A DNA stretch of 64,000 bases from Escherichia coli O157:H7 (GTDB taxonomy: Bacteria; Pseudomonadota; Gammaproteobacteria; Enterobacterales; Enterobacteriaceae), in the NCBI RefSeq assembly GCF_013167455.1, contig NZ_CP038328.1; one strand, written 5' to 3'. The notes below the pieces were generated by a model, which was not told the origin of the DNA, did not search any database, and was given only the letters and a program-made list of their open reading frames with translations. Both the position numbers and the translations under genes were made by a program. The number at the start of each line of letters is the position of its first letter. The stretch's first letter is position 1. Positions 31,519 through 32,345 of this stretch are shown piece after piece.

Positions 31519-32265
31519 ATGGCATTACTGGAAATTTGCTGTTACAGCATGGAATGCGCGCTAACGGCGCAGCAAAACGGCGCAGACAGAGTTGAATTAT
31601 GCGCAGCCCCAAAAGAGGGGGGCTTAACGCCGTCGTTGGGTGTACTGAAATCCGTGCGCCAGCGGGTGACGATCCCTGTGCATCCGATAATTCGCCCACG
31701 CGGTGGTGATTTTTGCTACAGCGACGGTGAGTTTGCCGCCATTCTTGAGGATGTGCGCACGGTCCGCGAATTAGGTTTTCCTGGACTCGTGACGGGCGTG
31801 CTCGATGTTGACGGTAATGTCGATATGTCACGAATGGAAAAAATAATGGCTGCTGCCGGTCCGCTGGCAGTGACTTTTCATCGCGCCTTTGATATGTGCG
31901 CTAACCCTCTAAATACACTCAATAATCTTGCGGAATTGGGCATTGCCCGGGTACTGACATCAGGGCAAAAATCAGACGCACTGCAAGGTTTATCAAAAAT
32001 TATGGAACTTATTGCCCATCGTGATGCTCCAATCATTATGGCCGGAGCAGGAGTCCGTGCAGAAAACCTGCACCACTTCCTCGATGCCGGAGTGCTGGAA
32101 GTCCATAGCTCCGCGGGAGCGTGGCAAGCCTCACCGATGCGTTATCGTAATCAAGGATTGTCCATGTCATCAGATGCACACGCGGACGAGTATTCGCGTT
32201 ATGTCGTAGACGGGGCGGCGGTTGCTGAAATGAAAGGAATCATTGAACGCCATCAGGCCAAATGA
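31519..32265 (+). CDS. cutC: Copper homeostasis protein CutC
   Basis: 248-aa TIM-barrel family ORF. Confidence 0.92.
32004..32032 (+). promoter_or_regulatory. Candidate sigma-E promoter inside cutC (MicL promoter)
   Basis: GGAACTT -35 element, ~16-nt spacer, tccaa -10-like element. Confidence 0.5.
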
Positions 32266-32345
32266 TTTTTACCGTTGCATCATGTCGCCCAATATGATGC
32301 TTGCTCGTACCAGGCCCCTGCAATTTCAACAGGGGCCTTTTTTTA
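32038..32345 (+). ncRNA. micL: MicL (RyeF) sRNA, embedded in the cutC 3' region
   Basis: Sigma-E-like promoter within cutC and an intrinsic terminator about 308 nt downstream; 5' end is approximate. Confidence 0.55.
32312..32345 (+). terminator. Intrinsic terminator after cutC (MicL 3' end)
   Basis: aggcccctg-caatttcaa-caggggcct stem-loop followed by ttttttt. Confidence 0.7.

Follow-up and report, generated by a model that had tools for sequence, protein, structure and literature searches.

The sigma-E-dependent small RNAs (sRNAs) MicA, RybB and MicL all bind Hfq and repress very abundant envelope proteins under conditions of envelope stress, and their promoters are of comparable strength. 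The genes for MicA and RybB stand free in intergenic regions and have 31 target mRNAs between them, whereas MicL, also called RyeF, is embedded in a coding gene together with the 3' UTR of that gene and arises by processing of a longer precursor; the only target validated for it is essentially lpp, which encodes the abundant outer-membrane lipoprotein Lpp. In the organisation of its 3' end MicL resembles a second group of sRNAs, CpxQ, SdhX, SroC and UhpU, which likewise consist of a 3' UTR with its terminator, are released by RNase E and are bound by Hfq. Unlike these, MicL is equipped with its own stress-specific promoter inside the upstream open reading frame, and its expression is therefore uncoupled from that of the host gene. 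In Escherichia coli K-12 the primary transcript starts 226 nt before the stop codon of cutC, and the 80-nt processed form, MicL-S, begins at the last base of that codon (Guo et al., 2014; PMC4102768). A sigma-E promoter precedes MicL and none precedes MicL-S, and the sigma-E dependence of this promoter, PmicL, has been demonstrated in K-12 by overexpression of rpoE, with a GFP fusion and with point mutants (Guo et al., 2014; PMC4102768). For K-12, published Northern blots likewise cover the two species, of ~308 nt and ~80 nt, under induction of rpoE. Since 2014 MicL has become both a model for RNase E processing, with a published processing study reporting that its sensitivity to RNase E differs from that of ArcZ and CpxQ, and a tool in biotechnology.

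The same arrangement is present in E. coli O157:H7, within the 64,000-nucleotide stretch of DNA that was analysed (hereafter the window, to which all coordinates refer unless stated otherwise). The host gene, cutC, was taken from the list of open reading frames and occupies 31519-32265 on the plus strand, comprising 248 codons followed by a TGA stop at 32263-32265 (+); cutC is the annotated gene name in the RefSeq records of both O157:H7 and K-12, and the gene order yecM-cutC-torY-torZ is common to the window and K-12, with torY starting at 32653. The Rfam family for MicL, RF02654, matches 32037-32344 (+) over the whole of its length (model positions 1-308 of 308), at 373.7 bits and E = 7.9e-113 against a gathering score of 56 bits. 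As cutC coding sequence makes up three quarters of this model, the parts specific to the sRNA were checked separately. At the homologous position the RefSeq record of K-12 MG1655 carries the annotated ncRNA gene micL (b4717). The original prediction named the feature MicL (RyeF), starting inside cutC and sharing its terminator, and this identification is upheld by the full-length RF02654 match, by K-12 b4717 and by agreement with the published landmarks. It draws on the identity and position of the individual elements, on their identity to K-12, on the complementarity of seed and target and on purifying selection, all at the level of sequence, and nothing found in the sequence contradicts it. 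We place the probability that this locus is the micL (ryeF) gene of O157:H7-type E. coli at about 97%. MicL is already well characterised; the feature is real, and there is nothing new in its biology.

Compared with MicL/RyeF of K-12 (RF02654, b4717; PMC4102768), the host gene, promoter, start, processing point, MicL-S, seed and terminator are the same, and what differs is the identity of two bases and the annotation. An ungapped comparison over 32004-32344 gives differences only at 32177, which is C in the window and A in K-12 (cutC Ala220 versus Glu), and at 32203, which is G in the window and A in K-12 (cutC Val229 versus Ile). Both are non-synonymous, and both fall in the coding body of the long form, outside the experimentally tested minimal promoter (-65 to +20) and MicL-S, which are each 100% identical to K-12 throughout. 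One of the two breaks a pair in the Rfam model structure of the long form. The upstream 485 nt of cutC hold a further nine differences from K-12. The very A/T-rich cutC-torY intergenic region that follows (32345-32652) has 23 differences from K-12 in 308 nt (~7.5%), as against 0.6% for MicL. Over the 451 bases surrounding the feature, several chromosomes of E. coli O157:H7 show 100% identity to the window, and of 5426 complete E. coli genomes 5424 carry the locus. One O157:H7 RefSeq record with the sequence of the window was checked; its sole annotation here is cutC, with no entry for micL.

The primary transcript is placed by RF02654 at 32037-32344 (+), with a length of 308 nt that agrees with the ~308 nt originally predicted between start and terminator; the end coordinate given at that time, 32345, lies one nucleotide beyond the annotated 3' end of the RNA. 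From the MicL start to the cutC stop codon the distance is 226 nt (32263 - 32037), equal to the published landmark. The cutC coding sequence contains both PmicL and the initial 226 nt of MicL. The processed form, MicL-S, corresponds by its published definition to 32265-32344 (+), and its length of 80 nt is confirmed. Two positions are on record for the 5' end: Rfam and Guo et al. begin MicL at 32037, a U, giving 308 nt, and the K-12 RefSeq record begins it at the equivalent of 32038, an A, giving 307 nt. The discrepancy is trivial; sigma-E promoters prefer a purine start.

Sigma-E promoters have the consensus GGAACTT / TCAAA, with 15-19 nt (preferably 16) between the two elements and a discriminator of 5-6 nt, the lengths of spacer and discriminator being inversely related, such that the -35 element lies 25-28 nt from +1 (Rhodius et al., 2006; PMC1312014). 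The GGAACTT and TCCAA motifs that had been reported inside cutC lie at 32004-32010 (+) and 32028-32032 (+), respectively. The -35 element takes in the last base of codon 162, Glu163 (GAA) and Leu164 (CTT), and starts 259 nt before the stop codon, in line with the ~260 bp first estimated. The -10 element is formed by the third base of codon 170, Pro171 (CCA) and the first base of codon 172. The spacer between them (32011-32027, +) is 17 nt long, not ~16 nt as originally predicted, and is within the published 15-19 nt range. This spacer is offset by a short discriminator of 4-5 nt, so that the distance from -35 to +1 is 26-27 nt, the preferred value, and PmicL as a whole fits the published rules. 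Directly 5' of the -35 element the sequence contains an A/T-rich stretch, TTATCAAAAATTAT (31990-32003, +), and the 30 nt upstream of the element are 67% A+T. A/T-rich UP sequences occur at sigma-E promoters (Rhodius et al., 2006; PMC1312014), and TTATCAAAAATTAT is a possible UP-like sequence. Sigma-E dependence of the promoter in the window is predicted by analogy with the K-12 experiments, which were performed on an identical promoter.

A motif of this kind could arise by chance in coding sequence, in which case GGAACTT-N17-TCCAA would be without function, the hairpin downstream would be the terminator of cutC alone and there would be no separate RNA. The need to encode conserved Glu-Leu and Pro residues does explain the bases in part, and the pattern GGAACTT-N15-17-TCNAA, which is found once in the 64 kb window where 0.05 matches are expected, has at least one match in five of 100 shuffles of the window. 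The motif count is by itself only suggestive. What decides the matter is the Rfam covariance match together with conservation of the promoter beyond any coding need, which was assessed by taking 56 cutC loci from other species and constructing a codon alignment of 44 distinct Enterobacteriaceae sequences. Rfam calls MicL in all of the Enterobacteriaceae loci among the 56, which represent Escherichia, Citrobacter, Salmonella, Trabulsiella, Pseudocitrobacter, Lelliottia, Superficieibacter, Kluyvera, Leclercia, Pluralibacter, Silvania, Franconibacter, Kosakonia and Siccibacter, and does not find it in those from Morganella, Edwardsiella and Limnobaculum or in three non-enteric loci. Every MicL-positive locus has GGAACT and TCCAA at the same position and with the same 17-nt spacing, the only exceptions being two loci of Citrobacter amalonaticus (L011 and the frame-broken L053) that have TGAACT in place of GGAACT. 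The outgroups keep the Glu-Leu and Pro residues with other codons (GAG CTG and CCG), and in them the motif is absent.

In pairwise comparison of the 44 sequences, the -35 element (GGAACT) averages an identity of 0.99 and the -10 element (TCCAA) one of 1.00, compared with 0.64 for the spacer, whose sequence varies freely, and 0.49 for third codon positions of cutC. Among 173 testable codons, that is, degenerate codons at which the amino acid is conserved, just three are represented by a single codon throughout; Glu163, in the -35 element, and Pro171, in the -10 element, account for two of them (hypergeometric p = 0.0012). Glu163 is GAA in 44/44 sequences, while all nine other conserved Glu codons are a mixture of GAA and GAG; Pro171 is CCA in 44/44, while at each of the eight other conserved Pro positions three or four codons occur, mostly not CCA. 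A general codon preference was considered as the reason for the fixed GAA and CCA, and was rejected on account of this mixed usage at the other conserved Glu and Pro codons of cutC. Constraint is also seen where the protein varies: codon 162 encodes seven amino acids, yet has G in its third position in 43/44 sequences, and codon 170 encodes Ala, Val or Thr, yet ends in T in 44/44. The pattern indicates that selection acts on the DNA bases of the promoter and not on the protein. A chance match is contradicted by the fixation of promoter bases at both synonymous and amino-acid-changing sites, by the outgroups that retain the residues and lack the motif, and by identity with a K-12 promoter that is sigma-E dependent by GFP fusion and point mutation; for K-12 itself it is refuted by published primer extension and promoter fusions. 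Chance is accordingly an extremely improbable account of the motif. The codon analysis provides a clear signature, obtained from sequence only, of a promoter embedded in a coding region, its hallmark being promoter bases that are fixed even at sites of amino acid change, and it could be reused in the search for others.

Three of the loci (L052, L053 and L055, with cutC at 1501 onward), from Leclercia adecarboxylata NCTC13032, Citrobacter amalonaticus AUH_CA_2023_1 and Kluyvera genomosp. 3 YDC799, combine a frameshifted cutC with an intact micL promoter and MicL-S. These frameshifts are probably assembly errors and not pseudogenes, because they are 1-nt indels that mostly fall in homopolymer runs, and the loci were dropped as evidence for retention of the sRNA in the absence of the protein.

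The same conservation bears on how MicL-S originates. Conceivably it could derive solely from processing of the 3' UTR of the yecM-cutC mRNA, the internal promoter being unimportant, and the absence of a promoter directly before MicL-S is in keeping with such an origin. [quoted passage not shown] Moreover, a point mutant of PmicL nearly abolishes both MicL and MicL-S and gives the copper phenotype, and the K-12 publication describes a synonymous PmicL mutant that loses stress-induced MicL-S with the cutC mRNA unchanged. Taken with the sequence conservation, these results make it very improbable that processing of the longer mRNA is the only source, and favour transcription of MicL from its own promoter within cutC.

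At the 3' end, cutC and MicL have in common an intrinsic terminator at 32312-32344 (+), identified by folding. Its hairpin (32312-32338) has a 9-bp G+C-rich stem (32312-32320 paired with 32330-32338) and a 9-nt loop, is followed by a run of seven T residues ending at 32344, and has a fold energy of -17.7 kcal/mol. A simple terminator scan missed this hairpin, the 9-nt loop exceeding the allowed maximum of 8, and folding was used instead. Stem-loop A of MicL-S, the first of two tandem 3' stem-loops, has 9 bp and spans 32277-32300 (+) in both single-sequence and consensus folds. The consensus fold of 20 distinct sequences recovers the two tandem stem-loops at 32277-32300 and 32312-32338 and has no pair broken. 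In the terminator stem, two pairs show compensatory double changes in Franconibacter and Siccibacter, and in stem-loop A the only changes are one-sided and keep the pair (for example G-C to G-U). Tandem 3' stem-loops position RNase E cleavage (Updegrove et al.), and release of MicL-S by RNase E is predicted here from the K-12 literature. The terminator with its 7-U tail is a typical Hfq-binding 3' end, and MicL, reported to bind Hfq in K-12, is predicted to do so here. The 3' UTR of cutC in Edwardsiella was considered as a proto-MicL and rejected; only a generic GGGGCC-T6 terminator aligns, and neither stem-loop A nor the seed was found in the alignment.

The seed, MicL-S +38 to +49 (UGCUCGUACCAG; 32302-32313, +), pairs with coding nucleotides +16 to +28 of lpp. 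It includes an exact 7-nt complement, GUACCAG at MicL-S +43-49 against CUGGUAC at +16-22 of the lpp coding sequence, and the published core (+38-49 with +16-28) is reproduced as this 7-mer and a flanking 5 bp, with one bulge. The predicted pairing extends over 32283-32313 (MicL-S +19 to +49). An unconstrained RNAduplex run on the whole of MicL-S produced an unrealistically long duplex that opened the terminator, and a run limited to nt 1-52 was used, for which the best duplex begins at the published lpp site. The energy of this duplex is of moderate significance, being better than that of 977/1000 mononucleotide shuffles, with 23/1000 as good, and the case for pairing rests on its coincidence with a published and mutationally verified site and not on energy. 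K-12 and an O157:H7 strain with a window-identical cutC region have the same lpp 5' region, at 100% identity. In K-12 the pairing has been verified with compensatory lpp mutations at MicL-S +41-44, with repression acting in trans from a plasmid, and lpp is the top partner of MicL in Hfq CLASH, where MicL-lpp chimeras were recovered on Hfq. CsrA has been reported to bind MicL and to weaken lpp repression, a finding that its authors call preliminary.

Conserved 3' UTRs can act in cis, and this one contains the cutC terminator and is upstream of torY; it might therefore be a cis element for stability of the cutC mRNA or for insulation of torY, and not a regulator in trans. The most conserved part is nonetheless the single-stranded linker and seed, which are unneeded for termination and complementary to lpp. 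None of the 44 sequences departs from the segment GTACCAGGCCCC, which is made up of the seed and the 5' strand of the terminator stem. The recovery of MicL-lpp chimeras on Hfq, the published plasmid-borne repression in trans with compensatory mutations, and repression of lpp by ectopic MicL-S in a cutC deletion background, reported in the K-12 publication, are likewise at odds with an element confined to cis. A purely cis role for the conserved 3' UTR is in consequence scarcely credible, and MicL-S is best regarded as a trans-acting regulator of lpp.

Conservation within the transcript is unevenly distributed. MicL-S has a mean pairwise identity of 0.93 (n = 44), which falls to 0.26 in the next 80 nt after the T-run and exceeds even the 0.86 of the first and second codon positions of cutC. 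The CutC proteins of the sampled genera are only ~63-77% identical to E. coli CutC, and nearly all of MicL-S is invariant among them. Purifying selection acts on MicL-S as well as on the bases of the promoter. For the 226-nt coding body of the long form no constraint at the RNA level was found: third-position identity is 0.48 there and 0.49 elsewhere in cutC, with codon entropies of 1.29 and 1.27, respectively. As this body is without detectable constraint, the structure that Rfam models for it is probably not functional, and the result accords with MicL-S being the active portion of the RNA. Within MicL-S, the 5' sequence UUUUACCG (32267-32274) and the loop of stem-loop A (~32286-32291) are invariant or nearly so across the 44 sequences, yet published deletion and mutation data indicate that both are seemingly dispensable for lpp repression and for choice of the cleavage site. 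It is a tentative and rather unlikely suggestion that this invariance reflects a further constraint, such as a second target or a specific contact through which CsrA, Hfq or RNase E would influence the activity of MicL.

Following the K-12 model, a pathway for the O157:H7 locus can be proposed. In response to envelope stress, or during stationary phase, initiation by RNA polymerase containing sigma-E would take place at the promoter in cutC codons 162-172, and the resulting 308-nt MicL RNA would terminate at the cutC terminator. The two tandem stem-loops at the 3' end would then direct RNase E to cut at the cutC stop codon, generating the 80-nt MicL-S, which may also be released from the yecM-cutC mRNA. 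Together with Hfq, the single-stranded stretch of MicL-S between the stem-loops is expected to pair with codons 6-10 of lpp and block translation, and the untranslated lpp mRNA would be degraded. A lower level of Lpp would reduce the load on lipoprotein and outer-membrane biogenesis and feed back on sigma-E activity. It is by extension from the K-12 literature that the O157:H7 locus is assigned dependence on sigma-E, cleavage by RNase E, binding to Hfq, repression of translation and the phenotypes in copper sensitivity and the envelope, all of which are presumed to apply here.

The location of micL has consequences for the interpretation of cutC phenotypes. In K-12, a synonymous PmicL mutant copies the copper sensitivity seen on deletion of cutC, whereas removal of the 5' part of cutC with MicL retained does not, and ectopic MicL or MicL-S restores copper resistance; MicL is held responsible for all of the phenotypes earlier tied to loss of cutC (Guo et al., 2014; PMC4102768). 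The original prediction that such phenotypes may in part be those of the sRNA is correct, and is an understatement in the light of these PmicL and 5' cutC mutants. With micL missing from the O157:H7 RefSeq record, the effects of cutC knock-outs or transposon hits could be misread as phenotypes of the protein.

Elsewhere in the window there are other Rfam matches. C0465 matches 17971-18046 (-), between the cheW and tar open reading frames, with 105 bits, and ES036/CssrF matches 36280-36322 (-), after torZ, with 45.5 bits, both above the gathering score; naRNA4/CssrE matches 46538-46613 (+) with 61.5 bits, barely over threshold. In O157:H7 strain PV15-279 (L060, 1-24650; NZ_AP018488.1, 2509887-2534534) a Stx2a-encoding prophage with three tRNA genes adjoins yecN at the DUF72 (yecE) gene. 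The corresponding part of the window (~38500-40000) has no tRNA genes and its open reading frames continue as in K-12, and the strain appears to be without a prophage at the yecE site. Escherichia sp. MOD1-EC7003 (L027, 2567-2609) has a further copy of ES036 downstream of its cutC, and in a metagenome-assembled genome of the Prevotellaceae (L059, 1103-1471) a gene for RNase P RNA (RF00010, 219.7 bits) is situated directly upstream of the cutC homologue.
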